Translations under genes and position numbers: made by a program
In this document: positions 1,001 through 24,191 of the stretch, one piece after another
How the letters are laid out: each line of letters begins with the position of its first letter
How positions within the stretch are numbered: position 1 is the first letter of the stretch
Assembly: GCA_030617525.1 (NCBI GenBank)
Contig: JAUWVG010000001.1
Location: 1-25,666 of the forward strand
DNA from: Candidatus Aminicenantes bacterium
GTDB taxonomy: Bacteria > Acidobacteriota > Aminicenantia > Aminicenantales > Aminicenantaceae
DNA: 25,666 bases
Direction: 5' to 3'
The notes under the pieces: model-generated
The model's database searches: none
The model's input: the letters and a program-made list of their open reading frames with translations, nothing else
Told to the model about the DNA's origin: nothing

Positions 1001-1079
1001 GGCTGTAAAATGGAGAAACACCCATTACATAAAAAGTGTGTCTGAAAAATCACTAAAAATGATGAAACTCGTGCAACGT

Positions 1080-3963: not shown

Positions 3964-4026
3964 AATATAGCCATTTCCTAAGCTGATGTTGTCAAACAAA
4001 AGTCAAAGAATGTAAAAGATTGTCAT
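3964..4026 (-). promoter_or_regulatory. P2 promoter: four phased TT(G/T)AC(A/T) repeats plus -10
   Basis: Minus strand ATGACA (4026-4021), TTTACA (4016-4011), TTGACT (4006-4001), TTGACA (3995-3990); periods 10, 10, 11; TATATT (3969-3964) 20 bp after the last repeat. Confidence 0.7.
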
Positions 4027-4712
4027 TTCCCAAGGAAACGATATCCTTCCCCGTAGACCGAAAGAATGTACTTAGGTCGGGATGGATCCTCTTCGACTTT
4101 TTTCCTCAATTTCAGGATATGATTGTCGATAGTCCGGGTGGTTGGAAATTTCTCATAACCCCAGATCTTGTCGAGAAGCACATCCCTTTTCACCACTTCT
4201 CCCTTGTGAGCGATAAAATATTTAAGAATCTCGGCCTCAAGGGACGTCAAATCCGACTCCTTCCCTCTCCGTCTGATCTTAAAGAAGGTAAAATCGATTT
4301 CCAGATCTTCCAGGCGATAGATATCAGGAACTCTTTTATTCTCCCGCGTCTCCCTCCGGAGATGGGCTTTGATCCGGGCCAGGAGCTCGCGGATGCTGAA
4401 GGGTTTGGTCATATAGTCGTCGGCACCGATCTCGAGTCCTACCACTTTATCCACTTCTTCTCCCTTGGCTGTGAGCATAATGATGGGGGTACTGATATTC
4501 TTCTTTCTCAACTCCCGGCATACCTCCAGTCCGTCCATTTTTGGAAGCATAATGTCCAGGATAATCAAATCCGGGATTTCTTCCTGTGCTTTCAAAAGAC
4601 CTTTCGAACCGTCATCAGCCCAGATCACTTCATATCCCTCATCGATGAAGTTGAGTCTCAGCCCTTTCACAAGATCTTGTTCGTCTTCGATAATGAGAAT
4701 TTTCTTTTTCAT
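4023..4712 (-). CDS. RR2: OmpR/PhoB-family response regulator (229 aa)
   Basis: Receiver ILIIEDE...LIILDIMLPKMDG...LTAK...GADDYMTKPF; winged helix RTIDNHILKLRKK...SVYGEGY. Confidence 0.97.
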   Translation of the reverse strand: MKKKILIIEDEQDLVKGLRLNFIDEGYEVIWADDGSKGLLKAQEEIPDLIILDIMLPKMDGLEVCRELRKKNISTPIIMLTAKGEEVDKVVGLEIGADDYMTKPFSIRELLARIKAHLRRETRENKRVPDIYRLEDLEIDFTFFKIRRRGKESDLTSLEAEILKYFIAHKGEVVKRDVLLDKIWGYEKFPTTRTIDNHILKLRKKVEEDPSRPKYILSVYGEGYRFLGK

Positions 4713-4716
4713 TGCC

Positions 4717-6816
4717 CTAATCCTCTAATGTTTCGGAAACCGGAATGTACACGGAAAAAACAGAACCCTTTTCCGGCTCGCTGTCTACACAAATCTCTCC
4801 GCCATGCGCCTCGACTATATGTTTGACCAAGGTCAATCCCAAACCGCTTCCCTTACTCTCAGAGGTCGTCCGATTCTGCAGGCGGTAAAATCTCTCAAAA
4901 ATCCTCGATCTAGCCTCAGGGGAAATCCCAATTCCACGGTCAGCAACTTGGAATCCGATACAATCATCCTTCCTGTAGACCGTTACTCTCACCTCTTTTT
5001 TCTCAGGGGAAAACTTCATGGCATTGCTCAGCAGATTGATCAGCACACTGGCTATGGCCTCCTTATCAAAAACAATATCAGGAAGGTCAGAGGAAATCTC
5101 TTCTACAATTGAAAACCCCTTCTTTTCAAGATGGTAGCGGTAGGATTCTAAAGTATTCTGGATAACATTAGCCAGGTTTCCCTTTTTAAAGTCAAACTCT
5201 TTCCTGCCCATCTCAATCCTGGAAAAATCGAGGATATTGTTGATCATATGGGATAATCGCTCGCTCTCTTTGGTGATGATCTCATAGGCTTCGCGCCTGT
5301 CTTTATCGGATAGATTTTCCTTCCGCTGGAGGGTCTCACCGTAGAGTCGGATCAATGTCAGAGGTGTCTTCAGCTCGTGAGAAACATTATGAACAAATTC
5401 CGTTTTAAGCTGCGTTGTTTCTGTTTCTCTGGATACATCGCGGACAATCAGCAGAACACCTATAAACATAAGGACGATGATGACACCAAGCAGGATCCCG
5501 TAGAAGAACTTCTCACGTCGAGCGGTTTTCTGCAGGTCATGGAAAGCATCCAAAGAAGCGATAAGCTTCCATGGCAGGAGAATATTCCGGAAGGACAGGG
5601 ACAGAGAATCCTTTGAGATCCCCCCCTCCTGTTCAGGGGATGTAATTCCGGTTTTTTCATCCAGGACAGACAGCAGAAGCCCTGAATCCTCTGAGATATC
5701 CTTTAATAATTCAGGCAGAACTTCTGACTTCAATAAATCCAAATCCCACACAAAACCTCCGAAAAATGTTTCGCCCGATTCCGTTGGAGGAAGAATACGA
5801 TAGGATATGAGCTGCAGATTCCCATTTGACGAAGTCAAGAATCGATCGGACTGGGATGTCTCTCCACTCCCATAAACACCTCTTCTCTCTCGAATCCTTG
5901 GAACAACATCGTTATTCAGGAAATCGATAATCTGCAATTCAAGGAGAAAGGATGATGGTAGGGCAATCAGGTTTTTATATTTTTCCCGCAATTCCGGAAA
6001 TTTCTGGTTTTCAAACGCTGGAACTAGAAGGGAATCTATTTCGGAAATGAAAAATCTAACTGAAGGAGAGTTCATAGGCCAATCTCCGTTCCACAGTTTT
6101 TTATAGGCATCGAGGAGTGTTTCTAATCCCTCTTCTTCTTTATTCTGATCTTTATGAATATCATATAGTTGAATCGACGCCACAAGGCCGTAGGGATGTC
6201 CAACCTTATTCCTCAGCTGCCCATAGTCCCGGGCTAGTTTATCGTAGGTGTCCCTGGCTCTATCGAAGTTTTTGGACAAGAGGAACGATCGGGCCAATCC
6301 TTCAAGAGAGAAGGCCTGATTCTGTCTTGATGTCGCAGCCTCAAAACTTTTCTGATAGTCTTCAGTCGCCTTCACATAATCCTTCAAGGAAAATTCGTAT
6401 CGACCAGCCCTCGAAAACAAGGTCTCAAACCGAGGTTCTGACAACGCCAAATCGATGGAATCAATTGATAATTCGAAGGATAAATATTTCGGGAACACGA
6501 TCTTATAATCCTCATCAAGGATGAAGTCTCCTCTTGCTAATTCTGTTGAATTCTCCAGGGTAGAAAATTTTTCCGGCCTGAGGGCCTGTTTCTCATACTC
6601 GAAAAGCCTGTCCTCGAGGGATTGGAGAGCGGCCTGACCTGAGGTCCAGAGACTGGACTCAAGAAGCCTGCTGACAGATTCCAGTCTCTTGGCAAAAGTG
6701 CTGAAACTCAGATACCCGACGATCAGGGTGGGAAGAAAGATAGCCAAGAGAAAAATGACAATAGTTTTCCTCTTGTGAATCATCCGCGGGAAAAACGGTT
6801 TTTTCGCTGACTTCAA
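4717..6816 (-). CDS. HK2: membrane sensor histidine kinase with TPR-like extracytoplasmic domain
   Basis: Two TM segments; H-box VSHELKTPL; N-box NLLSNAMKFS; DRGIGI, FERFYR, GSGLGL. The track start 6843 lies at the likely transcription start; TTG 6816 has GGAG 5 nt upstream and ATG 6783 is also possible. Confidence 0.95.
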   Translation of the reverse strand: MKSAKKPFFPRMIHKRKTIVIFLLAIFLPTLIVGYLSFSTFAKRLESVSRLLESSLWTSGQAALQSLEDRLFEYEKQALRPEKFSTLENSTELARGDFILDEDYKIVFPKYLSFELSIDSIDLALSEPRFETLFSRAGRYEFSLKDYVKATEDYQKSFEAATSRQNQAFSLEGLARSFLLSKNFDRARDTYDKLARDYGQLRNKVGHPYGLVASIQLYDIHKDQNKEEEGLETLLDAYKKLWNGDWPMNSPSVRFFISEIDSLLVPAFENQKFPELREKYKNLIALPSSFLLELQIIDFLNNDVVPRIRERRGVYGSGETSQSDRFLTSSNGNLQLISYRILPPTESGETFFGGFVWDLDLLKSEVLPELLKDISEDSGLLLSVLDEKTGITSPEQEGGISKDSLSLSFRNILLPWKLIASLDAFHDLQKTARREKFFYGILLGVIIVLMFIGVLLIVRDVSRETETTQLKTEFVHNVSHELKTPLTLIRLYGETLQRKENLSDKDRREAYEIITKESERLSHMINNILDFSRIEMGRKEFDFKKGNLANVIQNTLESYRYHLEKKGFSIVEEISSDLPDIVFDKEAIASVLINLLSNAMKFSPEKKEVRVTVYRKDDCIGFQVADRGIGISPEARSRIFERFYRLQNRTTSESKGSGLGLTLVKHIVEAHGGEICVDSEPEKGSVFSVYIPVSETLED

Positions 6817-6847
6817 CTTTGCTCCAAAATAAGCAGATATCAACTCA

Positions 6848-6889
6848 ATTATATCGAAGAAAACCCTTGAAATGTCAAAATAATGTAAA
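6848..6889 (-). promoter_or_regulatory. HK2 promoter: TTTACA-N5-TTGACA plus TATAAT
   Basis: TTTACA (6889-6884), TTGACA (6878-6873), 19-bp spacer, TATAAT (6853-6848); TTTTACATT.TTT is shared with the P2 promoter. Confidence 0.7.
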
Positions 6890-6917
6890 AAAAAGGACGG
6901 CCCACGAATGAGCTGTC
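6887..6917 (-). terminator. Intrinsic terminator after P3 (degenerate copy of the shared hairpin)
   Basis: Minus strand GACAGCTC-attcgt-GGGCCGTC (one mismatch, one G-U) followed by C and T8. Confidence 0.7.
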
Positions 6918-6940
6918 ATCAGCAACCGCCCTTTTGCGGC

Positions 6941-9061
6941 TTATTTCTTATCTTTAATTTTGGGCAGGAAGTTTTCCATTACCCAGACTTCGTCGTTGGG
7001 AGTTGTAAAACCGAATGAAGAGAAGGATAAATGATGGCCATCAGGATGAACGCTTAAGTGGCGGAAATTTGCCATTTTTAGGTTCAATTCTTGGGCCCTT
7101 TTCTCTTCCAAAGAATACATCCACAAATTCCACTCCTCGTTTAGTGGATGACTGCTTGAATAGAAAAAGATCCTTTTTCCATCAACACTCCAGGCGGGAG
7201 TGATTACAGTCACCCCTGATGTTTCGAAATTGTGAAGTTCCTGGGGTTCGCCCCCTGATATAGGAATGATCCGCATACTTCTTTTTTTTCCTCTGTTCAA
7301 AAAGACCAGCATTCTTCCGTCAGGGGAAATATCGATGTCCTTGGCATCATCTGGTGACCCCTGAAGTTTTTCATTCAAACCGGTTTTTAGGTCGAGGGCA
7401 AAGATCCAGGATTTTTTAGTACGGGGGTTGCCTTTGGTATAGAAAAGTGTTTGGCCGTCAATTGCCCATCTGTGTGAATAGAATTCTTCATTTTCTTCAA
7501 TTTGGACTAGAGGAGAAATCTTTTCAGAATTAACATCCATCTCGTATATTCCCTCCAAACCATTGCTATCTGTCCCCTCCCATGTAATCGCCTTTCCATC
7601 CGGCCGCCATTGAGGATAATTTAGCTCGAGGGATCCATGATCAAGCTCTCGGATTCCTCCATTCTCGAGTGAATAGAGACGAATAGATCTATTCATGGGC
7701 TGGATTCTTCGGAGAAAGCTGTAAGCCAAGTATTTGCCATCCGGCGAGTAGTCCGGGTAGGAATTGTGACCCTCACTATATCGTATTTCCACTTTTGGAG
7801 ACTCCAGGACCAGGCCGGATAAAGGATCGATCTTAACTACATATACATCATTCAGGGCTGAGCCGTTATAGCCGAAATAGAACTGATTGCGGAGAGTACA
7901 CCCAATAGGGAAAGCCGGACCGATATTCGGCTTCACAAGACTGGGTGTCCCATTTGCCTGTCCTCCCTTGACCGGAACAATCCAAACTCCCCGAACCCCG
8001 GTCCTCTCACTCCCGAACAGAAGATACTTCCCATCCGAGGTCCAATCGAATACATAGTCAAAAGAAGGGTGGGATATCAACTGTTCCTCGTATGTCCCGT
8101 CCGAAGAGAGAAGAAAGATATCCCGATTATTTGGATTTTGATCCCGGCAATCGTCAAAAGCAATTGTTCTTCCATCCGGAGAAATAACAAATCCCCAAGG
8201 GTGACCTTGGTAAAATTTACGTTTAAATGTTTTCAGGATTCTGAAGTTTCCATCGACAACAGAAAGAAAGCCAATAACAAATGTTTGCCCTCTTTCTTCA
8301 TAAAAACCAATGAGCATACGTTTTCCATCCGGGTGCCAATCAAAGGGCTGGATGTATCCAAAATCGTGATTTTTATACAGAATCCTGGGTTTTTGCTCTT
8401 CTAAACCGACTGTATAGATATCAAACGTGTCACCTTCAGGATCATACCAACTATATAAGACTTGATTGCCATCGGGTGACCACTTCGAATACAGGGCGAA
8501 TTCTTGAGATTTCAGCCAGGACCCTTTGTTCGTAAGACGACGGGATTTCCCATCTGCCAATTCACGAATGGCCAGGTCTCCGGTATCCCAGTCCGTAAAG
8601 GAAAGATATTTGCCATCGGGTGAAATATCCCCTGAAATGGCGGCTTCGCGTCCCGACAAGATTTTTTGTATCTTTAATTCCTTCGCCTTATCCTCAATGA
8701 CAGATTGGGCCTCTAAAAGAAGTGACAATTTTTCTCTTGCGATTTTCACAGCTTCAGTTTGATCCGGATACTTTTCTAGAACGGCCTGGAAAGCCTTCTG
8801 AGCATCACTCATCCCCAATTTCTGAAGACAGAGACCAATCTGGAGTTGGGCTTTGGCCGCAATCTCCCGTTCTTTTGGAAAGTCCTTAACGATCTTCTGA
8901 AAAACTTCAATTGCTCCTTCCAGATCCCCGCGGGTTTCTTGAAGATAGACCGCTCTTTCAAACAGGGCCTTGGCCGATTCTTGTTTAACAAGTCCAGAAA
9001 AAAGGAGAGAGGCTCCCATTACCAAAATTACTACCATTAAAAAAACTTTTTTTTGATTCAT
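6941..9061 (-). CDS. P3: exported TPR + PD40/TolB-like beta-propeller protein (706 aa)
   Basis: MNQKKVFLMVVILVMGASLLFSG signal-like N-terminus; TPR GDLEGAIEVFQKIVKDFP...AQLQIGLCLQKLG; SPDG repeats; ends VWVMENFLPKIKDKK. GGAGG 7 nt before ATG 9061 (track start 9085). Confidence 0.9.
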   Translation of the reverse strand: MNQKKVFLMVVILVMGASLLFSGLVKQESAKALFERAVYLQETRGDLEGAIEVFQKIVKDFPKEREIAAKAQLQIGLCLQKLGMSDAQKAFQAVLEKYPDQTEAVKIAREKLSLLLEAQSVIEDKAKELKIQKILSGREAAISGDISPDGKYLSFTDWDTGDLAIRELADGKSRRLTNKGSWLKSQEFALYSKWSPDGNQVLYSWYDPEGDTFDIYTVGLEEQKPRILYKNHDFGYIQPFDWHPDGKRMLIGFYEERGQTFVIGFLSVVDGNFRILKTFKRKFYQGHPWGFVISPDGRTIAFDDCRDQNPNNRDIFLLSSDGTYEEQLISHPSFDYVFDWTSDGKYLLFGSERTGVRGVWIVPVKGGQANGTPSLVKPNIGPAFPIGCTLRNQFYFGYNGSALNDVYVVKIDPLSGLVLESPKVEIRYSEGHNSYPDYSPDGKYLAYSFLRRIQPMNRSIRLYSLENGGIRELDHGSLELNYPQWRPDGKAITWEGTDSNGLEGIYEMDVNSEKISPLVQIEENEEFYSHRWAIDGQTLFYTKGNPRTKKSWIFALDLKTGLNEKLQGSPDDAKDIDISPDGRMLVFLNRGKKRSMRIIPISGGEPQELHNFETSGVTVITPAWSVDGKRIFFYSSSHPLNEEWNLWMYSLEEKRAQELNLKMANFRHLSVHPDGHHLSFSSFGFTTPNDEVWVMENFLPKIKDKK

Positions 9062-9171
9062 TTTTGTTCCTCCATCATGTGACATTCCAATAAAATAAAC
9101 ATAACGGAGGATGTTTGTGTTGAGGAATTATGGAAAATTTGTGAAAAACCTTCCACATGGAGACACTTCAT
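9058..9171 (-). CDS. Possible 37-aa small ORF between RR3 and P3
   Basis: AAGGAGG (9188-9182) 10 nt before ATG 9171; MKCLHVEGFSQIFHNSSTQTSSVMFILLECHMMEEQK; its TGA overlaps the P3 ATG (ATGA). It also crosses the putative P3 promoter. Confidence 0.25.
   Translation of the reverse strand: MKCLHVEGFSQIFHNSSTQTSSVMFILLECHMMEEQK
9092..9148 (-). promoter_or_regulatory. P3 promoter: phased TTCC(A/T)(C/T)A repeats plus -10
   Basis: TTTCCATAATTCCTCAACACAAA (9136-9114), 19/23 identical to the HK3 upstream motif; extra upstream TTTTCACA; TATTTT (9097-9092) 22 bp after CTCAA. Confidence 0.65.
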
Positions 9172-9187
9172 GTTTTTAATTCCTCCT

Positions 9188-9874
9188 TTAATCTACAAAT
9201 TTATAACCGATACTGTGGACACTTTTGATATGTTTGGGTTTAGAAGGATTATCCTCGATCTTCTTCCGGATGTGAGCCATGTGGCTGTCCACGGTTCTGT
9301 GTGAAACCGCCAGGTTGTCGGCACCCCAAACACTATCCAGAAATTCATCTCGGCTTATGACCTGTCCTTTTCTATCAATCAACAACTTAAGAATCTTTAG
9401 TTCCAGGGGAGTTAAACGCAAATCTAAACCATCCTTACGGGATTCATATTTTTGAAAATCCAATTCCACACTCCCAAATCTATAGAGTTTTATTTCATTT
9501 TGATAATCCTCAACCCGGCGAAGCAAAGCCTTGATCCGGGCGGATAGCTCCTTGAGACTAAAGGGCTTAGTGACATAATCATCTGCACCCAACTCCAATC
9601 CCAAAACTTTGTCCACTTCCTCATCTTTGACAGTCAACATCAAAATCGGAGACGTCACTCCCTCCTGGCGCACTCTCTTACAGATCTCAAAACCATCCAT
9701 CAGGGGAAGCATCACGTCCAGGATTAAAAGATCCGGCTTTGATGCTAAGGCCAACTCCAATCCCTTTTCTCCATCGGCGGCTGTTGTCACATCATATCCC
9801 TGCTCAGAAAGTGCATCCTGGAGGATCACTCGGATGCCGGCATCATCTTCTACAATTAGAATTGTTTTTTTCAA
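9188..9874 (-). CDS. RR3: OmpR/PhoB-family response regulator (228 aa)
   Basis: TTG start after GGAGGTGAG; ILIVEDD, LLILDVMLPLMDG, GADDYVTKPF; RTVDSHMAHIRKK, SVHSIGY. Confidence 0.97.
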   Translation of the reverse strand: MKKTILIVEDDAGIRVILQDALSEQGYDVTTAADGEKGLELALASKPDLLILDVMLPLMDGFEICKRVRQEGVTSPILMLTVKDEEVDKVLGLELGADDYVTKPFSLKELSARIKALLRRVEDYQNEIKLYRFGSVELDFQKYESRKDGLDLRLTPLELKILKLLIDRKGQVISRDEFLDSVWGADNLAVSHRTVDSHMAHIRKKIEDNPSKPKHIKSVHSIGYKFVD

Positions 9875-9877
9875 AAC

Positions 9878-12013
9878 TCACTCACCTCCTTCTCGGATAG
9901 GGAAAATAAGTGATACGCGACTTCCCTCTCCGGGACGGCTCGAAACAACAACTTCCCCTTCATGAGCAGCCATTATATGTTTTACCAAAGTCAATCCAAG
10001 GCCGGTGCCTGTCGGAGAGATCGAGGAAGCTTTTTTTCCACGATAAAATTTTTCAAATATTTTCTTCTGTTCATTCTCTGGAATTCCAATTCCTTTATCC
10101 ACCACAGTAATCTCGACCATTTCCCCTTTCCGCTCGACAAAGACTTCAATTTTCTTCTCTCTCTGTGAAAATTTGGCTGCATTGTCCAGGATGTTGTGAA
10201 AAGCCTGGTTCAGAGCTTCTTCATCTGCATAAACAGGAAAACTATTGTTTTCCATTTGAAGCTTTACATTAAAACCTGAAAGTTTGTGCTCTTTTTCAAA
10301 GCTTTCTACTTCCTGTCGAACCAATCTGCCGATATCGATGGATATTGGCCTGTATTTCCTTTTGCCTTCCTCGATTTTTGTAAAGTCAAGGACATTCAAA
10401 ACGAGTCTCTTTAGACGGTCGGAATCATGCCTAAGAATTCTGTAATATTCCCGGATTTTGTCCGGATTTTTTATTTTACCGTCCTGAAGATGCTCCAAAA
10501 TCGCTCCCATGGATGTCAGAGGAGTTTTAAATTCATGAGAGACAGAAGCAATAAATTCAGATTTCAACTGCAGGAGATTCATCTCCTGTGCAAGTAAGCG
10601 GATAATAAGGCTTGATCCAAAAAGCAGGATCACAAGTAGAGTTAAAATCATCCAGAAAAAAATATTTTCATAAAGAACAAATCCAGATCCCATTGCTTCA
10701 TTCTTATAAAGCTCCACTCTCCATGGCGGAAAATTATCTAGGAAGAGATCGGTAAAAATCGGCTTCTTACTCTCTGCGTCCTCTTCACCGAAGACAATTC
10801 TTCCTGTTTGATTGGAACGCATAAGAACTGAGATTCCAGATGGGGTGTTCTCTGATAACAAAGTGTCTGCATTTATTGTTAGATCATTTGCACCAAAAAT
10901 AGTTCCAAGGAAATCCATTCGAAAACCTTGATTGGGTCCATTTAAGGGTACAGATATCAAAAAAACTTCCTCTCCCTCAAACATTAAAACATTTTTCAAA
11001 ATCGGGAAGTTGGCTCCTTGTATACGATCCAAAATATCTTCTCCATAGGGCAAAACATCCTGTACCGCAAATTCGGCAAGGCGTCCTATATGCAGTTTCT
11101 TTTCCACTTTATTCTGAAAATCAATCACAGCGGCCAAAAAACCTTCTGGATAAACATCTTCTAATTCTTTAGCGACTACATTATTTATCATTTCTTTAAG
11201 TGTGTCCGCATAGAGTTTGACCTGACTTATATCCAGAGACCAAACTTTCTTTTCGAGACGTACATAGGTCTCAAGCGATTCCTTGAACAAGGCCTCAAAA
11301 TTATCAGATGTATAAAGAATATTCAGCATTTCGAGGCGGGAGACAAACTCTAGAGAGCGGCCGGACTCCGTGAGAAGATCCGGAAAAGAATCGATAAGAG
11401 ATCTGTAGACAACCAAAGCCTGCTTGTTGCCCGCTTGCTTTACCTCACACCGTGCAATGCGGCTTAAGATCCATGCACGGACTTTGTCGTTATTAGATCT
11501 GCTCAGTACTTGGCGGTATTGAGAAATCGCATTTGAAAAATCTTTTTGTTGAAATTCTGCCCTCTCGGCCTCATTAAGATTTGGTTGAATAGTCTTCCAT
11601 TCATCAGGTTCGAGTATTGTTTTTGAGGTTAGAGGAAAAACCTGATAAACAGGCAGCCAAAGTTCCCCCTTTTTGTTCCAGATAACAACTTCTCCAAAAA
11701 AAGAATCCCTTTGCTGAACACCAACAATTGATTCTCTAATCTCAGAATAGCCAGCATCAGAAAAAATTTCACTGTTAGCAAGCCCCATCAAATCCGTTGA
11801 TTGTGTTTCGACAAAATCTTGAATATCCTTCTGCACTGAACTGACATAGCCCTTGTGCTCCTCAAGAGTCTGCTGTTGGATCTTAAATTTTTCATTGCGC
11901 AAAGCCCGCATTCCAAAAAAGGCCAGGAAAATCGAGGGCAGAAATACCACAACAAAAAAAATTGAAAGGATTTTTCTGTTTTGAGATAAGACGAGTTTGA
12001 GATTATTTAGCAT
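9878..12013 (-). CDS. HK3: membrane sensor histidine kinase with TPR-like extracytoplasmic domain (711 aa)
   Basis: Two TM segments; AERAEFQQKDFSNAISQY...ILSRIARC; VSHEFKTPL; NILDNAAKFS; DKGIGI; FEKFYR; GTGLGL. Confidence 0.96.
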   Translation of the reverse strand: MLNNLKLVLSQNRKILSIFFVVVFLPSIFLAFFGMRALRNEKFKIQQQTLEEHKGYVSSVQKDIQDFVETQSTDLMGLANSEIFSDAGYSEIRESIVGVQQRDSFFGEVVIWNKKGELWLPVYQVFPLTSKTILEPDEWKTIQPNLNEAERAEFQQKDFSNAISQYRQVLSRSNNDKVRAWILSRIARCEVKQAGNKQALVVYRSLIDSFPDLLTESGRSLEFVSRLEMLNILYTSDNFEALFKESLETYVRLEKKVWSLDISQVKLYADTLKEMINNVVAKELEDVYPEGFLAAVIDFQNKVEKKLHIGRLAEFAVQDVLPYGEDILDRIQGANFPILKNVLMFEGEEVFLISVPLNGPNQGFRMDFLGTIFGANDLTINADTLLSENTPSGISVLMRSNQTGRIVFGEEDAESKKPIFTDLFLDNFPPWRVELYKNEAMGSGFVLYENIFFWMILTLLVILLFGSSLIIRLLAQEMNLLQLKSEFIASVSHEFKTPLTSMGAILEHLQDGKIKNPDKIREYYRILRHDSDRLKRLVLNVLDFTKIEEGKRKYRPISIDIGRLVRQEVESFEKEHKLSGFNVKLQMENNSFPVYADEEALNQAFHNILDNAAKFSQREKKIEVFVERKGEMVEITVVDKGIGIPENEQKKIFEKFYRGKKASSISPTGTGLGLTLVKHIMAAHEGEVVVSSRPGEGSRVSLIFPIREGGE

Positions 12014-12043
12014 GAATTTCCATGCCTTTTATTTCACAAATTC

Positions 12044-12088
12044 ATACTATATCAGGAAACCTAGTTTTATGTTAAGGAAATGTGGAAA
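12044..12088 (-). promoter_or_regulatory. HK3 promoter: TTCC(A/T)(C/T)A repeats plus -10
   Basis: TTTCCACATTTCCTTAACATAAA (12088-12066); TAGTAT (12049-12044) 22 bp after CTTAA, with overlapping TATAGT (12051-12046). Confidence 0.65.
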
Positions 12089-12096
12089 TCCAAATA

Positions 12097-12129
12097 AGGA
12101 AAGGGACGACCCATAATTGAGCCGTCCCT
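12097..12129 (-). terminator. Intrinsic terminator after P4
   Basis: Stem AGGGACGGC/GTCGTCCCT (12129-12121 / 12110-12102, one G-U) followed by TTCCTTATTT. Confidence 0.8.
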
Positions 12130-12149
12130 ATCAATCCCCCTTTACGGGC

Positions 12150-15100: not shown

Positions 15101-16022
15101 CTTTTTGTGGAAAGTCATACACAATGTATCGCCCGTCAGGTGAAAAACACATATTTTCCGGCCAACTCTTTTCAAACGTTTTGAGGACAGACACAGAACC
15201 ATCGGTTGTGGAAACTAATACTATTTGTACAATTATGTTTGTTCCAACTTTTCTATCGAAGTATGCCAGAATTTGCTTCCCATCCTGCGACCAATCGTAT
15301 GTGTACATCCATTGCACTTCCTTATCACTAAAAAGAATTCGGGGCTTAGACCCATCGAGCCCGATTATGCGCAGGTCACAATAGTCCTTACTGACCAACG
15401 CACAAACAATCTGATTACTGTCGGGAGACCATCTGGAAATGGAAGAGATATGACCTGATTCATCCCATGATTCCCTATTTGTTAATCGACGTTTCTTCCC
15501 GGATGCAATTTCATAAATGGCTAGGTCTCCGGTGTCAGTATCCCGATAAGAGATATACCTACCATCAGGTGAAGGGGCGCCGACACCGCTTCCATCTTGC
15601 GCCCAAGCCTGGTTGATGCGCAATTCGCCTTCTTCTGTGAGTTTTTTCGATTGAGCCTTTATAAAAGTTGCCAGTTTTTCTTTTGCAATTCTGACTTCTT
15701 CGGATTGCGAAGGATAGTTGTCGATGACTTTCCGGAAAGCATCCTGCGCCAACTTAGCACTTTTTTGTCCCAGTTTTTCATAACACAGGCCGATACGAAG
15801 CTGGGCCATAGCTGCGATATTCTGCTCTTTTGGATACTGTTCTAAGATCTTTTCGAAAAGCTTAATAGCACCCAACATGTCTCCGTCGGCATCTTTCTTA
15901 AAAACCGCCGCTTCATACAATTCCTTGGCTGACTGCTGATTATCAGCACTCAAGAAAATCCCAAGTGACATCACCAAAAGAAATATTACGCTCACACAAA
16001 CTAAAACTTTGATTCTTCTCAT
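12150..16022 (-). CDS. P4: exported TPR + doubled PD40 propeller protein (1290 aa)
   Basis: Signal-like MRRIKVLVCVSVIFLLVMSLGIFLSA; one TPR domain; two full propeller modules, each starting with ..DG.Y..Y.D..TGDLAI.EIA.GK.RRLTN and ending WVMEN(F/Y)LP. AGGAGG 6 nt before ATG 16022. Confidence 0.92.
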   Translation of the reverse strand: MRRIKVLVCVSVIFLLVMSLGIFLSADNQQSAKELYEAAVFKKDADGDMLGAIKLFEKILEQYPKEQNIAAMAQLRIGLCYEKLGQKSAKLAQDAFRKVIDNYPSQSEEVRIAKEKLATFIKAQSKKLTEEGELRINQAWAQDGSGVGAPSPDGRYISYRDTDTGDLAIYEIASGKKRRLTNRESWDESGHISSISRWSPDSNQIVCALVSKDYCDLRIIGLDGSKPRILFSDKEVQWMYTYDWSQDGKQILAYFDRKVGTNIIVQIVLVSTTDGSVSVLKTFEKSWPENMCFSPDGRYIVYDFPQKAGSLERDIFLLSTDGTREIPLIEHPSYDELLGWAPDGKNIIFASDRNGTFSLWNIQISDGISQGKPELVRSNMGSIEPLGFTRKGSFYYGYSKKNNNIYTVELDPETGEILVPPKRTITRFEGYNQSPIYSPDGKYLAYISRRFPLTIYPDYTIAKLGGNVLSLKSLETGKEREIFPNLKNKFFHPRWSPDGRSVFVKVWDTNGIYRIDTQTGNAELVLFDDNMDAAPFVLSPDGKNIFYTLRNRKTKTYQFIVKDFKSGDQKELYRSEGDLHINLSPDGQWLTIQENYLQVSDKIPSLSIIPSTGGELRKLWSFEDGIAIRYGAPSTWTLDGKNILFAMKFPKKDGEKWDLYRISVKGGEPEKLELEMGGFIMNLSIHPNGRHIVFSTSEEENSEVWVMENFLPLEKLPQQKEREDFVVRKVQAGAPSHDGKYLAYKDKETGDLAIREIATGKTRRLTNKGAMDQPREFVINSVISPDSKLVAYTWTNQYTTYDLCLIGIDGSGDRVLYSGTYNQLELDSWSSDGKQIIFRKYSRKPANLEIILVSVVDGTTQVLKTFEKPFVPRICYSPNDRFIAYDFPSAEKSGNYDINLLATDGGGEIHLIEHPANDRLLGWVPNREEMLFLSNRTGTYDIWAVKVENGKEKSMPWPVKRDIGQISPKGFTKDGSFYYSIFTRRFTTEIAPFDLKTGKVQEELSSPLFVGSNFTVEWSPNGENLVYKTEKTDPAGPGFYNRPLYVRNLQTGEERELAGEFEVNEPRWSPDGRSVLVIGHLKTKGNQRANNEGIYKIDVQSNQVTQIVQLPPDHRAIAEWSHDGKAVFYKNRDRILMRDLESGQEKQLYQNNNLAEFLDLSSDGKTLVFVTSNPEEETWSMLIKSVSGGDPRELCKLQGSDVLWSSDVTWTPDGNYVLFAKYDENKGSSVWRISAEGGEPEMIWQSKDPNGFVVSLSVHPQDSKIAVSFLIQEHESWVMENYLPKLENKK

Positions 16023-16054
16023 CAAAAGCCTCCTGTGATTTTCATTTCAGGAGA

Positions 16055-16120
16055 ATAATAATGTTTTTTTTCCGGTTTGTGGTTAAGGTTAAACAGAGTT
16101 TGCATTGAGTTTCAGTGGAG
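16055..16120 (-). promoter_or_regulatory. P4 promoter: four CTCAA-like repeats at exact 11-bp period plus -10
   Basis: CTCCA (16120-16116), CTCAA (16109-16105), CTCTG (16098-16094), CTTAA (16087-16083); TATTAT (16060-16055) 22 bp downstream. Confidence 0.65.
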
Positions 16121-16126
16121 ATAATT

Positions 16127-16807
16127 CTATCCCTCGAATCTATGCCCAACTCCTCTGATGCTGACAAGGTACCGGGGTTGAGAGGGATCCGGTTCGATCT
16201 TTTTCCGGAGATGAACGATGTGGGAATCAATGGTCCGGGGAGAGATGATGGCATCACCCCATGCCTCATCGAGAAGGTTGTCCCTAGTCACGACCTCCCC
16301 TTTACGTTCGATAAAGAATTTCAGAAGCTTAAATTCCAGGGCTGTCAGATGGATTTTTTCTCCGGCTTTTAAAACTTCATGGCGCTTAAAATCAACCGAG
16401 ACCTCTCCAAATTCAAAGACATCCCCGGTCTCCTTCTCTATTCCGGTCCGCCGCAGGATCGCTTTCACACGGGCGACCATCTCTCGTGATCCCACTGGCT
16501 TTGTGACATAGTCATCCGCGCCCATTTCCAGTCCCATAACTTTATCCATCTCCTCTGTCTTTGCCGCTGTGAGCATAATAATGGGCGTCCTCACATTTTC
16601 CTCTCTCAGTTTCTTGCAGATTTCAAAACCGGTGAGTTCCGGGAGCAGGATATCGAGAATGATGAGATTAAACTCCTTGCTTTTAGCCAACATGTAGCCC
16701 TCTTTCCCATTATCGGCAACGGCAACTTCATATCCCTCAAATTCCATGTCGTCCTTCAATCCCATCAGGATGGTTTCGTCATCCTCTACGATTAATATTT
16801 TAACCAT
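16127..16807 (-). CDS. RR4: OmpR/PhoB-family response regulator (226 aa)
   Basis: ILIVEDD, LIILDILLPELTG, GADDYVTKPV; RTIDSHIVHLRKK, SIRGVGH; overlaps the HK4 stop by 8 bp. Confidence 0.97.
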   Translation of the reverse strand: MVKILIVEDDETILMGLKDDMEFEGYEVAVADNGKEGYMLAKSKEFNLIILDILLPELTGFEICKKLREENVRTPIIMLTAAKTEEMDKVMGLEMGADDYVTKPVGSREMVARVKAILRRTGIEKETGDVFEFGEVSVDFKRHEVLKAGEKIHLTALEFKLLKFFIERKGEVVTRDNLLDEAWGDAIISPRTIDSHIVHLRKKIEPDPSQPRYLVSIRGVGHRFEG

Positions 16808-18938
16808 GATTTTTTCCTTTTTGTGAAATCGGAAGTTTGAGTATCACTCTGGTTCCCTTGTCCAAATCACTCTCTAAAATTACTTCGCCTCCATGGGCTT
16901 TGACAATATGGTCAACAAGAGTGAGGCCAATTCCGCTTCCCTCGATGTTTTTTTGGGTGGGATCGACAGATCGATAAAATTTTTCGAACACTTTTTTTAG
17001 TTCATCTTTGCTGATTCCGACACCCATATCCTGAACCTCCAATAAAACAACTTCTCCCTCGAAGCGAGCTCGGAAATATATCAATGGATCCTTTCCCGAA
17101 TATTTGACAGCATTGTCAAGCAGATTAAACAGGGCCCTGGAGATCCCTTCTTTGTCTGCATGAATAATTGGCAAATGGTCAGATATCTCACATTCCAAAG
17201 TCACATGTTTATCAGCAACATATTCCTCGAACCTCTGAATAACATCCTTGACCAGTTCCCCAACACCCATCTCTTCAAAAAGGTATTTCTTCATCCCGGC
17301 CTCTATTTTTGAAAAATCGAGCATATTCTCGATAAGCCGGCTTAGACGTTCACTTTCTTTGCTGATCTTTCCATAATAAATGCTTTTCTTATCCTCTCCC
17401 TTCACTCGCCCTGAATCGAGCATCTCGGAGAGATAGCGGATGGACATTAAGGGTGTTCTGAATTCATGGGATACAGTAGAGACAAATTCCGATTTTAACC
17501 TGGCCAACTCCAACTCTTTGGCAGTACTCTTGATCGCCATAAATCCACCGAAAAATAAGACGGCCATTACAACCACAACGATAAGGATATAGACATTTCG
17601 CCTCAGGTTGTACTGCCGATCCGAAGCATTCGGATATTTCTGGAGTATGTGGATTTGCCAGGGAGGGAAATCCTGATCGAATCCCAAAACAATAGGCGAG
17701 CTGAGACCGTCCGCTAAAGAATCCAAAACCTCTTCTCCTAAAACAATGTGGCCGTCGGAATCGACAATTTGAAGCAACCAGTCCTCAGGGATCGGGAGTT
17801 TATCCAGAATTTGTGGGAATCGTTCTTCAATCAGAACGGAGTTGTCTATACGGATTCCCAGGATAATGTCATTTTGGACAGTTGCAGCAGTGATGAGAAA
17901 CAAATTATCACCTAAGATCTCAGAAAAACGGGAAAATTCATTGGCCTTGCTGTTAAGCCCGAATAATCTGGCTTGAACAAGGGGAATGATCTTTTCTATC
18001 AAATCCTCCTCCGCTGTCAATTCTCCGAGCTTGGCATCTGCCTGCTTTTCGAATTCATCCCATCGATTCTTGAAATCCACATCCTCCGATGCACCCCTCC
18101 ATTCAGTTTTCCATGTCTCCCCCATTTTATTTATAATGCTTCGATAAAACTGAAACTGTGAATTGTCCAGGGACCATTTAGGGCCCTCCAGGCGGCTGTA
18201 GAATTCCAATATAATTTGTCCTGTTTTTTCAGGCTCAGTCTTTTGAGTAATGGTACCCATCTGAAAAAAAGCGATGATCCCAAGGGGCACGCCTTCAGAA
18301 CTCATCTCATTGGAAAAATCTTCAAGGATTGTATTGTAGGTGTTTATAGCTTGGTTGAGATTTCCCAATTTTTTGTAGCATCTAGCAAGGCGATTTAAAA
18401 CCAGAGCCTTGGAAGAATCATCCTGAAACGAGTTTGCTAATGTTTTATAGGACTGAATGGCCAGAGACAAATTTTGAGTTACAAGCTCAGCCGATTCCGC
18501 CGTTTTAAAGAGTCCGAAACTCTCAATTTTTCCTAGATTGAGTCCGGCAAGACGCCTCCTTTCTGATGTGAGAAACAGAGGGCTCTTGAGAGGAAAAACC
18601 AATTCGCTGTCCGCCCCGGCCAGAAAGATATCACCAATGAGAGCTTCAGTTTCAGCGCCCAGACAGCAGGCCTCTGACAATTTTTGTATGTCCTGCTGTG
18701 TTCGAGCATCTGATACAGCAGTCGTTATCTTCTCTTCAATCTCCGAAAAGAGGGAGTCGATTTCACCGGTCAAAAGAGAGGCATATCTCTGCTGCTCTCT
18801 TTCAAGGTCCCTCTCTCGTGCAAGTTTTTCCCTCTCTGCTTCCCGGACAGCTAGAGTGGTCAAAAAAAAGCCTAAAACTAGAGTGAATCCGGCAAGTAAA
18901 ACAACCGATCTTCTCTGCCAATTCAGTTTAAAGACCAT
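16800..18938 (-). CDS. HK4: membrane sensor histidine kinase with TPR-like extracytoplasmic domain (712 aa)
   Basis: Two TM segments; AESAELVTQNLSLAIQSY...LNRLARCYKK; VSHEFRTPL; NLLDNAVKYS; DMGVGI; FEKFYR; GSGIGL. Confidence 0.96.
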   Translation of the reverse strand: MVFKLNWQRRSVVLLAGFTLVLGFFLTTLAVREAEREKLARERDLEREQQRYASLLTGEIDSLFSEIEEKITTAVSDARTQQDIQKLSEACCLGAETEALIGDIFLAGADSELVFPLKSPLFLTSERRRLAGLNLGKIESFGLFKTAESAELVTQNLSLAIQSYKTLANSFQDDSSKALVLNRLARCYKKLGNLNQAINTYNTILEDFSNEMSSEGVPLGIIAFFQMGTITQKTEPEKTGQIILEFYSRLEGPKWSLDNSQFQFYRSIINKMGETWKTEWRGASEDVDFKNRWDEFEKQADAKLGELTAEEDLIEKIIPLVQARLFGLNSKANEFSRFSEILGDNLFLITAATVQNDIILGIRIDNSVLIEERFPQILDKLPIPEDWLLQIVDSDGHIVLGEEVLDSLADGLSSPIVLGFDQDFPPWQIHILQKYPNASDRQYNLRRNVYILIVVVVMAVLFFGGFMAIKSTAKELELARLKSEFVSTVSHEFRTPLMSIRYLSEMLDSGRVKGEDKKSIYYGKISKESERLSRLIENMLDFSKIEAGMKKYLFEEMGVGELVKDVIQRFEEYVADKHVTLECEISDHLPIIHADKEGISRALFNLLDNAVKYSGKDPLIYFRARFEGEVVLLEVQDMGVGISKDELKKVFEKFYRSVDPTQKNIEGSGIGLTLVDHIVKAHGGEVILESDLDKGTRVILKLPISQKGKNHG

Positions 18939-19067
18939 TTTTAAAAAGCTTTCAGACTTATTCTTAACCTTCCAATTATTTTTCCTCAGCCCCTAAGTCG
19001 TACAGAGAAAACAGTATAACGTAAGTATCAAGATGTCAATTCTGTCCATCCTCCAATTTGTTTCCTC

Positions 19068-19120
19068 AGTATAGAACAAGTTCAAGCTTTTTATGTTGAG
19101 AACAGGTTGAGTTTGAGTGG
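19068..19120 (-). promoter_or_regulatory. HK4 promoter: CTCAA-N6-CTCAA plus -10
   Basis: CCACTCAAACTCAA (19120-19107), 13/14 identical to the P4 upstream CCACTGAAACTCAA; second CTCAA (19100-19096); TATACT (19073-19068) 22 bp downstream. Confidence 0.65.
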
Positions 19121-19196
19121 ATTTTTTTTCGGAAGGCTTTCGCCTTCGACCGCCATTTCAAAGATTATGGATACGAGATCCATCCTCCCTTATAAT

Positions 19197-19229
19197 AGAA
19201 AGGGGACGGTCCCCGAAAGAACCGTCCCC
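19197..19229 (-). terminator. Intrinsic terminator after P5
   Basis: Perfect 9-bp stem GGGGACGGT (19202-19210)/ACCGTCCCC (19221-19229), then TTTCTATT on the minus strand. Confidence 0.8.
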
Positions 19230-19250
19230 AGCAATACCCCTTTTAAGGAT

Positions 19251-21419
19251 TTATTTTTTGTCTTTAGTTTTGGGCAGGAAGTTTTCCATCACCCAGACAT
19301 CTTTGATTCTATGGTTTGAACCGAAAACAATTTTTTCTCCGTCAGGATGAACCGACATCCAGAGGATATTATCTTTATACACTCCGAGTTTCTGCAGGTT
19401 TTCTCCTGATGCAGATATACGCCACAGATCATGGGAATCTCGCTTCGGCAGTCGATAAGAGGCAAAAATGAGTTCCTGGCTTTCGGGCATCCAGGCAATT
19501 GTTGAAATCTGCTCTCCTCTTTCCTTCATTCTGAATATCTCTCTGGGTTCTCCTCCAGCAGTGGGTACAATCATAAGAACCGGTGACCAGCCTTTATTGA
19601 ACGCCAGCCATTCTCCGTCAGGAGATATGGCCAAATCGTGAGAAAAAAAACTATTTCGTCCGACTATATAACTGGGATTGAACTCACCTCGGCAGATTTC
19701 CTTTTTTTCTTTGCTTTTAAGATCATACTTTATGATTTGTCCGTATTCTTTTTGAGGATGCTGATAGGTATAGAAAATCTGTTTTCCATTGAGTGCCCAC
19801 TCCGGTTCACTGACAACATCATTGGATTCGAATTGAATAATGGATGAGATTCCACCAGTTTTTACATCCACCAAGTAAAAACCCTCTTGATCTATTTCAG
19901 CGCTTCCAACAACCAGAATGGAGCGCCCATCAGGAGACCATCGTGGTCCCCAGATATATCTGAGTTCAGGAATAATTTCATGTTCATCACCGGTCTCCAG
20001 ACTGCGGATACAAAGCGGATGTTTTGCATATCCGGAATCTCGGTTCGATACATAAGACAAATATTTGCCATCGGGGGACCATTCCGGAAAGACATTTCTA
20101 CCCACAAAACGTTGTATGGCTTTAACAGGAGGAAATTGAATTTTTTCTCTCTTTGAGTCAAAGTCAGCCGTAAAAATATCCCTTAAATTGCCTACCAACA
20201 AATAATGGAATGAGTTATCTTTAGTAAATCCCAAAGGCCATAAAGTTCCAATGTCACTTTTAATCAACCGTAGATCTCCATGAGGACTTCCTTCTTTCAC
20301 ATCAGCAGCCCACATATCCCTAGTTCCGGATCGTTTACTGGCAAAAATAACCGTTTTCCCATCATTGGACCATCCCAAGGTCAGGTCATCTTCCGGATGA
20401 TCATTCAGAGAGATTTCACTGCTTCCATCCACCGCCAGAAGAGAAATATCACGCTTTCGAGAGTCTCCTTCGGGAGAAAAATCTCCGGCTATGTATTTGC
20501 CATCGGGTGAAAAGAGGCCCAATCTCCTCGGCTCACTTGTGGGAGGAGAATCATATTCTTTAAGCACGCGCATGGATCCGTCTTCGACAGAAATCAAAAC
20601 TGCCTGATAAGCCATGTATTTTTCACCAATAACTGCAAATATAAGCTTGCCATTGGGAGACCAATCAACGGGGTGTATTTGTTTTTTATCAGCCGTCTTA
20701 TAAATCACTCGAGGTTCATCAAGATCAGGTCCGATAATGCACAATTCAGAGGACTGCTTCCTATTAAAAGTAACTTGGTTTCCGTCAGGAGACCACACAG
20801 GAAATCCACCTTTTATGGGAGTTTGGTTTGTTTGTTTGATGGATATTTTCCCTTTGTCTTGTAAGAAATCCTTTGTAATAAGACATCTTTTTTTAGTGGA
20901 AAATTGGAAGACGCCTAAATTACCCTCAATATCCGAAAAAGACAGGAATTGACCATCAGGAGAAACCCTGCCCAGATTTCCTCTCCCCAAGGGGGGAAAT
21001 TCCCAAACCTTTCGAATCCTAAACTCTTTATCACTTTTAATAGCAGGAGATTTTGCACTCAGTAGAGCTGATAATTTTTCGCGGGCCAATTTTACGACAC
21101 TGGACTCCGTAGGGTAGTTGTCGATAACCTTCTGGAAGGCGTCCTGTGCCTCCTTTATGCTTTTTTGACCAAATTTTTCGTAGCACAGCCCGATCCGAAG
21201 CTGGGCCTGGGCGGCAATTCTGTGATTGCTGCTGAATTTCTCGATGATTTTCTGATAGAGATCGATGGCCCCTTTCAGATCACCATCCACCTCTTCTTTT
21301 TCAATGGCAGAACGGAGCATAACTCCAGGATCCTCAGTTTTCTGAGAGACCCCAACAATGGATAAACTCACTCCCAAAAAAATAATCAGAATAATTCTTT
21401 TGATCGATTTTTTTTTCAT
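19251..21419 (-). CDS. P5: exported TPR + PD40/TolB-like beta-propeller protein (722 aa)
   Basis: MKKKSIKRIILIIFLGVSLSIVG; TPR GDLKGAIDLYQKIIEKF...AQLRIGLCYEKFG; SPDG repeats; ends VWVMENFLPKTKDKK. Confidence 0.92.
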   Translation of the reverse strand: MKKKSIKRIILIIFLGVSLSIVGVSQKTEDPGVMLRSAIEKEEVDGDLKGAIDLYQKIIEKFSSNHRIAAQAQLRIGLCYEKFGQKSIKEAQDAFQKVIDNYPTESSVVKLAREKLSALLSAKSPAIKSDKEFRIRKVWEFPPLGRGNLGRVSPDGQFLSFSDIEGNLGVFQFSTKKRCLITKDFLQDKGKISIKQTNQTPIKGGFPVWSPDGNQVTFNRKQSSELCIIGPDLDEPRVIYKTADKKQIHPVDWSPNGKLIFAVIGEKYMAYQAVLISVEDGSMRVLKEYDSPPTSEPRRLGLFSPDGKYIAGDFSPEGDSRKRDISLLAVDGSSEISLNDHPEDDLTLGWSNDGKTVIFASKRSGTRDMWAADVKEGSPHGDLRLIKSDIGTLWPLGFTKDNSFHYLLVGNLRDIFTADFDSKREKIQFPPVKAIQRFVGRNVFPEWSPDGKYLSYVSNRDSGYAKHPLCIRSLETGDEHEIIPELRYIWGPRWSPDGRSILVVGSAEIDQEGFYLVDVKTGGISSIIQFESNDVVSEPEWALNGKQIFYTYQHPQKEYGQIIKYDLKSKEKKEICRGEFNPSYIVGRNSFFSHDLAISPDGEWLAFNKGWSPVLMIVPTAGGEPREIFRMKERGEQISTIAWMPESQELIFASYRLPKRDSHDLWRISASGENLQKLGVYKDNILWMSVHPDGEKIVFGSNHRIKDVWVMENFLPKTKDKK

Positions 21420-21439
21420 CTAACTTTACCTCTACCATC

Positions 21440-21493
21440 AATATAACGATTAAAAATCAAATCCGTATCCAGGAAGTGTCCAGAGTTTGTCAA
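21440..21493 (-). promoter_or_regulatory. P5 promoter: three T(T/G)GA(C/T)A repeats at 11-bp period plus -10
   Basis: TTGACA (21493-21488), TGGACA (21482-21477), TGGATA (21471-21466); TATATT (21445-21440) 20 bp downstream, the same geometry as P2. Confidence 0.7.
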
Positions 21494-21498
21494 GATAT

Positions 21499-22173
21499 TC
21501 AGCCTTCAAAACGGTATCCCCTGCCCCTCACGCTGAGGATATACTGGGGTTTTTCAGGCATAGGTTCGATTTTCTTGCGCAGGTTGAGGATGTGAGTGTC
21601 CACCACCCTTTCGGTCACAATAACGGCAGGTCCCCAGGCCGCATCGATCAATTGATCGCGGCTCAAAAGCCGGCCGCGCCTGCGGACAAATGTCTCCAGG
21701 AGGCGGAATTCCAGTGCGCTCAAATTGACAGGCTGGCCGCTGATGCGGACTTCTCCGCGGTCAAAGTCGACTTCGCATTCTCCAAATTGAAATATACCGA
21801 GGGAATCATCCGTGATCCTGCGGAGCAGGGCCTGGATCCGGGCACGCAGTTCCCGGGGACTAAAGGGTTTTGTGATGTAGTCGTCCGCGCCCAACTCTAA
21901 GCCAAGAATCTTTTCGGCTTCATGCGTTTTGGCTGTCAACATGATAATCGGTGTTTTAATTCCCTCACTGCGGAGCTCCCGGCAGACTTCGAATCCATCT
22001 TTTTTCGGAAGCATGAGGTCAAGGATTATCAAGTCCCATTGAGAGTCCTTTCCTAAAAACAAAGCCCTCTCCCCATCACCCACGGTTTCGATCTGGTATC
22101 CATGGCTGGATAGGTCCTCCTCCAGGCCGAGAGCAATGTCTTTGTCATCTTCGACTATCAGTATCTTTGGCAA
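21499..22173 (-). CDS. RR5: OmpR/PhoB-family response regulator (224 aa)
   Basis: Start reassigned from 22260 to TTG 22173 (GGAGG about 8 nt upstream, 4 bp after the HK5 stop); ILIVEDD, LIILDLMLPKKDG, GADDYITKPF; RVVDTHILNLRKK, SVRGRGY. Confidence 0.96.
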   Translation of the reverse strand: MPKILIVEDDKDIALGLEEDLSSHGYQIETVGDGERALFLGKDSQWDLIILDLMLPKKDGFEVCRELRSEGIKTPIIMLTAKTHEAEKILGLELGADDYITKPFSPRELRARIQALLRRITDDSLGIFQFGECEVDFDRGEVRISGQPVNLSALEFRLLETFVRRRGRLLSRDQLIDAAWGPAVIVTERVVDTHILNLRKKIEPMPEKPQYILSVRGRGYRFEG

Positions 22174-24139: not shown

Positions 24140-24191
24140 ATCATCTTTTCTCTACTCTATCCAACACGGCTAAACTTTTCAATCAAGAAAA

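Follow-up and report, generated by a model that had tools for sequence, protein, structure and literature searches.

The stretch of DNA analysed here (the window: 25,666 nt, contig JAUWVG010000001.1 of a Candidatus Aminicenantes bacterium) encodes several paralogous two-component systems side by side, and the question it raises is how such regulators address different DNA targets. The window belongs to an Aminicenantes genome bin of 2.9 Mb in 507 contigs. All of its genes lie on the minus strand, in a tandem array of units, each with a sensor kinase (HK), an OmpR/PhoB-type response regulator (RR) and a propeller protein (P), and with two promoters per unit; at least nine further units occur in the same bin beyond those of the window, and relatives carry arrays of up to ten. 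An original prediction for this locus held that the operator class of each regulator follows residues of its recognition helix. We propose that each unit is an autoregulated two-component switch and that the target sets of the paralogues are kept apart through positions 1-4 of a repeated half-site, which co-vary with helix residues; on the sequence evidence set out below, we put the probability of this reading at roughly 0.6.

Regulators and phased operator arrays

Judged by domain content and alignment, regulators RR2-RR5 are ordinary members of the OmpR/PhoB family. They score 101-113 bits with the Pfam model Response_reg (cut-off 30.2) and 82-87 bits with Trans_reg_C (cut-off 26.2), and their closest relatives of known structure are RegX3, RpaA, MtrA and PhoP. 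The four were aligned with the PhoB reference of E. coli K-12 (from NC_000913.3), to which they are 36-39% identical. Residues E9, D10, D53, T83 and K105 (PhoB numbering) are invariant across all five proteins, R193, D196, H198 and R203 are likewise invariant, and the wing motif G-x-G-Y/H-R/K-F also aligns to PhoB. The PhoB recognition helix, RTVDVHIRR, falls on the same nine columns as RTIDNHILK of RR2 (gene 4023..4712, helix 4110-4136), RTVDSHMAH of RR3 (9188..9874, helix 9272-9298), RTIDSHIVH of RR4 (16127..16807, helix 16211-16237) and RVVDTHILN of RR5 (21499..22173, helix 21583-21609), all on the minus strand. At positions 194, 197 and 201 these helices carry the signatures T/N/K, T/S/H, T/S/H and V/T/N, respectively; the residue numbers of RR3 itself coincide with PhoB numbering over 193-201. 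Opposite R219 of PhoB, in the wing, stand Y, H, R and R in RR2-RR5. The helices in the translated reading frames and the wing residues in the alignment are exactly those of the original prediction. Its equivalence of contact residues with PhoB is upheld by the alignment, and the PhoB contacts it names, T194, V197, R201 and R219, are given as base-specific in two papers, both citing 1GXP (PMC3973317; PMC3264566); according to the first, R201 hydrogen-bonds guanine and T194 and V197 touch thymines (PMC3973317).

Each kinase joins HisKA and HATPase_c domains to a sensor region that contains TPRs; in the P proteins, a TPR domain at the N-terminus is combined with PD40 propellers. The promoter that lies directly downstream of a regulator matches that of the regulator's own kinase and differs from that of the next unit. 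The unit is therefore kinase(n)-regulator(n)-propeller(n-1), and the promoter just downstream of a regulator belongs to that regulator. This kinase-regulator-propeller order is kept in all of the approximately 200 units examined.

When all units were searched iteratively for phased arrays, a common half-site emerged, YT(T/C)NACA, in which position 1 is C or T, position 2 mostly T, position 3 T or C, position 4 any base and positions 5-7 ACA. The 7-bp core is followed by a 4-nt A/T-rich spacer, and two to four direct copies recur with a period of 11 bp (10-12 allowed). Every unit has such 11-bp phased direct repeats at its two promoters; they are conserved among orthologues and are candidate regulator sites. 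Both promoters of one unit share a motif, and neighbouring units differ. A single global half-site matrix missed arrays of the RR4 class, which scored below threshold, so cluster-specific matrices from expectation-maximization (EM) were used instead, with a null of shuffled sequences put through the same EM procedure as the real arrays. With these matrices, 267 of 290 arrays scored above both 12 bits and the null's 90th percentile. The core found here, together with TPR-sensor kinases and TPR/PD40 propeller targets, ruled out a PhoB orthologue controlling the phosphate regulon, for which the core would be CTGTCAT, the partner PhoR and the targets pst/pho genes.

Of 140 Aminicenantes promoters, 78 have a gap of 20 bp between the end of the proximal 7-mer and a -10-like hexamer downstream of it, and 104 a gap of 19-21 bp. 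With this spacing the array covers part of the -35 region, yet it provides no -35 hexamer at the correct distance. In these promoter sequences, the fixed array position upstream of -10 and the lack of a canonical -35 at 17-bp spacing match the layout of PhoB-type class II promoters. The proximal TTGACA or TTAACA was considered as an ordinary -35 hexamer and rejected, since its spacing to -10 is 19-21 bp and not 17.

The eight promoters of the RR2-RR5 units in the window score 18.7-25.7 bits with the class matrix of the adjacent regulator, compared with maxima of 5-11 bits in the window's coding DNA; the class matrices used for this scoring were built solely from orthologues in other genomes. 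All eight arrays are read on the minus strand. The RR2 promoters carry TTTTACA/TTTGACA, namely TTTTACA and TTTGACA at 11-bp spacing before HK2 (6869..6890; 25.7 bits) and AATGACA, TTTTACA, TTTGACT and TTTGACA before P1, just downstream of RR2 (3986..4027; 24.2 bits). For RR3, the array before HK3 (12066..12087; 22.0 bits) consists of a distal TTCCACA and a proximal CTTAACA, and that before P2, downstream of RR3 (9114..9146; 18.7 bits), of TTTCACA, TTCCATA and CTCAACA. The RR4 arrays are ATCCACT, CTCAACC and CTCAACA before HK4 (19090..19122; 22.6 bits) and, before P3 and downstream of RR4, CTCCACT, CTCAATG, a degenerate CTCTGTT and CTTAACC in 11-bp phase (16077..16120; 22.8 bits), where the array finder took the first two sites only and the last two were read by eye and from orthologues. 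The RR5 promoters carry CTTGACA/CTGGACA, with TTTGACA, CTGGACA, CTTGACA and CTTGATT before HK5 (24177..24220; 24.9 bits) and CTTGACA, CTGGACA and CTGGATA before P4, downstream of RR5 (21462..21494; 22.2 bits). The promoter motifs claimed for RR2-RR5 are thus present as described, including CTYAAC(A/C) near the promoter in all four RR3 and RR4 cases. These four promoters carry CTTAACATAAAA, CTCAACACAAAC, CTCAACATAAAA and CTTAACCACAAA. The pattern CTYAACMNNAAA occurs four times in the window against 0.36 expected; three of the matches are in RR3/RR4 promoters, the gap of the fourth such promoter being one base shorter. The remaining match (CTCAACATAAAA at 1662-1673, plus strand) is outside the unit promoters, in a toxin-antitoxin promoter region on the other strand, and was treated as chance.

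Covariation of helix residues and half-site bases

Homologous units were collected with the N-terminal TPR motif of the propeller protein as specific marker, and two scans of a species-representative genome collection gave 156 loci. The first scan returned almost exclusively Candidatus Aminicenantes; the second reached Bryobacterales, Vicinamibacterales and other Acidobacteriota of about 62% G+C. After de-duplication there were 179 Acidobacteriota regulators in units, 159 of them with accepted arrays, and these 159 units form 74 clusters at 80% identity with 26 signatures at positions 194/197/201/220. The expectation that the family could supply many matched regulator/operator pairs was borne out by this set. 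Loci L099-L176 extend the unit beyond Aminicenantes to Bryobacterales, Vicinamibacterales, Terriglobia and other Acidobacteriota bins, where it is often present more than once, and the cores of the ~62% G+C bins are C-rich at position 2 (CCTGACA, TCTGACC).

Counted over clusters, several helix residues are strongly associated with particular bases. His201 goes with C at position 3 in 11 of 12 clusters, against 2 of 62 with other residues. At position 4, Asn197 is found with G or T (23/28 clusters vs 7/46 for other residues), Lys197 with C (5/5 vs 6/69) and Pro197 with A (5/5 vs 2/69), while Ser197 is accompanied by A or C, and Thr197 by G in a Val194 background and by A or C elsewhere. C at position 2 never occurs with Thr194 and is present in 17 of the 34 clusters with Val or Ala194. 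The wing residue Tyr220 coincides with T at position 1 in 8 of the 8 clusters that carry it, and with T-rich spacers. In a cluster-level permutational multivariate analysis of variance on the first data set, columns 220, 197, 200 and 201 ranked 1, 2, 5 and 6 of 172.

Descent was taken into account with a tree built from the regulator alignment after removal of the helix and wing columns. On this tree His201 changes five times, Lys197 twice and Pro197 twice, and pairs on non-overlapping paths nearly always shift the operator base as predicted; for His201, about 4 contrasts are supported, of which 2.8 show position 3 changing along with the residue and none shows a change in the opposite direction. 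Among 79 independent sister pairs, a difference at 201 is accompanied by a large change at position 3 in 7 of 11 pairs, compared with 3 of 68 pairs without one (p = 1e-5), and a difference at 197 by a large change at position 4 in 5 of 9 compared with 4 of 70 (p = 6e-4). The pairs that differ at 197 or 201 are more diverged overall (0.34 vs 0.15), so the test was rerun for every variable column with overall divergence as covariate, ranking columns by their prediction of change at half-site positions 2-4 in the 79 pairs. Column 201 ranks first of 165 (t = 5.5), 197 fifth, 204 sixth and 200 ninth, and the presence of four helix columns among the top nine has a hypergeometric p of 2.7e-4. With the global matrix only, 201 ranks second of 170. 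The link between residue 201 and position 3 appears robust on these data, and that between residue 197 and position 4 probable. Covariation was thus found across the 159 homologous units, and the claim that operator class tracks the helix residues stands for 201 and 197. It is not supported for 194, which shows no independent signal in this test (63rd of 165 after divergence correction); T194 was rejected as a determinant on that rank and because Thr194 versus Val/Ala194 is essentially one deep split, with one change.

Besides the greater divergence of the differing pairs, several points weigh against the reading that helix residues set the operator bases. There are 1-5 supported contrasts per residue state, so no single sign test can reach p < 0.05 and the tests give direction only. 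Residues 197 and 201 often differ in the same pairs, which leaves their two effects unseparated. With the global matrix only, 197 ranks just 28th of 170, and columns outside the recognition helix also rank high: two precede helix 2 (172 and 174) and two belong to the receiver domain (20 and 25). Ser197 and Thr197 classes take several bases at position 4, and the half-sites of a single promoter are as unlike one another as some classes are; any code would therefore be partial. Finally, the mapping of 201 to position 3 and of 197 to position 4 is one that we draw by analogy, setting the 7+4 register against the pho box of E. coli.

The small number of contrasts per state would also be expected if residues and operator bases merely mark some ten old paralogue classes and drift together, without one determining the other. 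Receiver-domain divergence also predicts motif divergence (t = 3.4), and receiver columns 14, 16, 20 and 24 separate the classes almost as well as the helix columns do, as such co-inheritance would have it. It does not readily account for the enrichment of helix columns at the top of the 165 after divergence correction, for the recurrence of His201 with C at position 3 in two separate clades, or for the fact that the residues implicated are the base contacts of PhoB (PMC3973317; PMC3264566). One of these clades has Thr194 and includes RR3, RR4 and the Pro197 classes; the other has Val194, with RVVDTHILH paired to CTCGACA. His201 is combined with the core CTC in both. Co-inheritance on its own is in our view unlikely.

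The first rank of the wing column in the cluster-level test, and the coincidence of Tyr220 with T at position 1 and with T-rich spacers, raise a further alternative, that specificity lies mostly outside the helix: in the wing reading the spacer and position 1, in how many strong and weak sites there are and in what order, or in DNA shape, with the helix in a minor role. The order of unlike half-sites within an array, e.g., CTTGACA, CTTCACA, CTTAACG, is conserved among orthologues, in keeping with this idea. The wing residue changes only three times on the tree, however, so its rank may reflect clade identity, and 201 is still the best single predictor in independent pairs. We consider this alternative very improbable.

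Receiver helix 1 columns 14, 16, 20, 24 and 25, together with columns 172-174, separate the paralogue classes about as well as the recognition-helix columns. The receiver helix 1 columns lie where the specificity of kinase-regulator pairing resides in other systems; if they govern kinase pairing here, the paralogues would be kept apart at the kinase interface as well as at the DNA. Columns 172-174 may represent further positions close to DNA.

Proposed mechanism and the likeness of RR3 and RR4

From the arrays and their covariation we infer that the phosphorylated regulator binds head-to-tail on two to four direct-repeat half-sites, each a 7-bp core and a 4-bp spacer, and that it acts at two promoters, that of its own kinase-regulator operon and that of the downstream exported propeller gene. 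By analogy with PhoB, an array over the -35 region would bring about class II activation of both promoters. The targets of the paralogues would be kept separate mainly by half-site positions 1-4, with a causal role for two residues: 201 would read position 3 (His with C), and 197 would read position 4, Asn selecting G or T, Lys C and Pro A, and Ser being permissive for A or C. Residue 194 would have a weaker connection with position 2, and the wing residue a weaker one with both position 1 and the spacer. Placed in the 7+4 register, the pho box CTGTCAT offers G as its third base and T as its fourth, which fits this mapping. So does simple chemistry, in which His or Lys bonds the guanine of the opposite strand and Pro contacts a thymine methyl.

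A stronger form of the same mapping is a partly additive code that could be transplanted between OmpR/PhoB winged helices, with 201 specifying base 3, 197 base 4, 194 influencing base 2, and the wing specifying base 1 and the spacer. We offer this form tentatively, as possible though on balance doubtful. If it were true, the more than 70 natural classes would constitute a library of mutually orthogonal pairs, in which single swaps reprogram specificity predictably.

The class half-sites of RR3 and RR4 are alike, TTCCACA/CTYAACA for RR3 and CTCAACC/CTCCACA/CTCAACA for RR4, and the two regulators do not have unrelated predicted sites. We suggest that this resemblance, summarized as YTC[A/C]AY, exists because both regulators have Ser197 and His201. 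The original prediction went further: identity at T194, S197 and H201 would give RR3 and RR4 the same proximal CTYAAC, and their units might cross-regulate at the DNA level. T/S/H is indeed common to the two, and CTYAAC(A/C) stands near the promoter in all four of their promoters. As a signature of T/S/H, however, proximal CTYAAC did not survive comparison across classes, since A at position 4 is found proximally in every Ser197 class, including T/S/N. In these classes the proximal half-site has A at position 4 in 70-74% of cases and the distal one C in 74-79%. CTTAAC or CTCAAC also occurs with T/P/H, T/P/Y and T/T/N helices, including other paralogues of the window's genome. By this comparison, proximal CTYAAC is a positional feature of all Ser197 classes, part of their promoter architecture, and the correlate of His201 is C at half-site position 3.

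Matrix scores bear on the same point. The RR4-class matrix gives 16.1 bits (P2) and 9.1 bits on the RR3 promoters, and the RR3-class matrix 12.8 bits (HK4) and 9.4 bits on the RR4 promoters. Some of these cross-scores (16.1 bits on P2, 12.8 bits on HK4) exceed background, as cross-regulation would predict, but cognate scores of 19-23 bits exceed cross-scores of 9-16 bits by 6-13 bits. Class pairs with different helices cross-score equally high or higher, e.g., 16.6-18.2 bits for the C222 class on the RR5 promoters. Distal sites and spacers are also unlike, with TTCCACA and T-rich spacers for RR3 versus CTCAACC/CTCCACA and A-rich spacers for RR4. The predicted cross-recognition between the RR3 and RR4 units is modest, and we judge the three-residue account of their operators to be quite improbable.

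Conserved half-site order can be seen in Ser197-class promoters, for example at window positions 12066-12087 and 9114-9146 and in loci L025, L033 and L052. The A-proximal, C-distal order suggests graded affinities or a special role of the protomer adjoining RNA polymerase.

Neighbouring genes and comparison with known systems

The remaining genes of the array, all on the minus strand, are those of the kinases HK2 (4717-6843), HK3 (9878-12013), HK4 (16800-18938) and HK5 (22178-24139) and of the propeller proteins P1 (1856-3955), P2 (6941-9085), P3 (12150-16025), P4 (19251-21419) and P5, of which the 3' part is present (24280-25665), cut at the window end. P3 measures 1291 aa against about 700 aa for the other P proteins, and has two PD40 propeller modules in succession besides a single TPR region at the N-terminus. 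All propeller genes are alike at their ends, with the motif ..ENFLPK.., and behind it stand a G+C-rich hairpin of similar sequence (GGGACGGCTC...GGGCCGTCCC) and a run of T. These terminator hairpins (6890-6935, 12095-12140, 19190-19240, 24225-24270 and 1800-1850, minus strand) each stand directly before the next kinase promoter, and the terminator is conserved in DNA although the proteins share only 28-39% identity. The leader of HK4 (18939-19250, minus strand) measures 312 bp versus 97-140 bp at the other kinases. Downstream of the operator array, this leader has another TTGACA...TATACT-like pair as well as a long stretch that is not translated.

Toward the beginning of the window, a further TPR-sensor kinase is represented by its N-terminal 309 aa only (3-929, minus strand). 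Its promoter (1079..1100, minus strand), outside the range covered by the original prediction, carries CTTCACA twice (CTTCACAcaatCTTCACA), a Lys197-class motif, the fifth promoter type of the window, that is also found before the kinases of RTVDKHIAE regulators in the same genome (contig C484) and in relatives. The unit array therefore runs on past the window end, and the cognate regulator lies beyond the window. Between P1 and this promoter is a toxin-antitoxin pair, a ParE-family toxin gene (1105-1401) overlapping a small ribbon-helix-helix-like gene (1380-1622), both on the minus strand. Upstream of the pair, in a promoter region at approximately 1623-1680, the inverted repeat ACACATAT..ATATGTGT extends over TATAAT-like hexamers and is probably the antitoxin's operator.

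OmpR/PhoB is the largest family of bacterial response regulators, and the Acidobacteriota expansion provides well over a hundred natural regulator/operator pairs of shared architecture. If the covariation is causal, it would be of help in forecasting the regulons of uncultured bacteria and would show how signalling units duplicated in tandem escape cross-talk on DNA; synthetic circuits would gain orthogonal parts from it. Should the covariation not be causal, the units would still be ordinary autoregulated two-component systems.

The nearest model is E. coli PhoB with its pho box (1GXP). Both systems have a winged-helix OmpR/PhoB regulator with R193, D196, H198 and R203 kept, an array over the -35 region and a two-component operon that is autoregulated, the last predicted here from the promoter arrays. 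PhoB reads two 11-bp units, each a major-groove tract with an A/T-rich minor-groove spacer (PMC4447250), and the Aminicenantes sites, known from their sequence, have the same head-to-tail 11-bp units with core and spacer. The helix positions 194, 197 and 201 and the wing position at which PhoB contacts bases align with the same positions in the Aminicenantes regulators. Unlike PhoB, these regulators have other residues at 197, 201 and the wing and a core of YT(T/C)NACA in place of CTGTCAT; their proximal core ends 20 bp before the -10 hexamer, and their target is an exported TPR/PD40 propeller gene rather than phosphate genes. A further difference is that each lineage has dozens of paralogous units. 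In their design, the operators correspond to pho boxes and to the PhoP boxes of Gram-positive bacteria. Operators of Bacillus subtilis PhoP consist of TT(A/T/C)ACA repeats, a core that resembles the CTTAACA and CTTCACA seen here. B. subtilis PhoP is a single global phosphate regulator, whereas the Acidobacteriota family comprises many paralogues, each with a private two-promoter regulon and a diverged core.

A search of the literature, which leaves out most subscription journals, found no residue-base code for OmpR/PhoB regulators and no general rule for predicting their sites. Residue-base correlations drawn from locally acting regulators and nearby operators are established for the LacI, MerR and IclR families (PMC4052901, PMC2677863, PMC5045206, PMC8222616). 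The present finding would be a data-rich instance of that known principle, and what it predicts concretely, a pairing of 201 with base 3 and of 197 with base 4, is testable but unproven. It has in common with those recognition-code studies the use of local regulator-operator pairs across many genomes, and it differs from them in its direct-repeat sites and in drawing its data from one recently expanded paralogous family.

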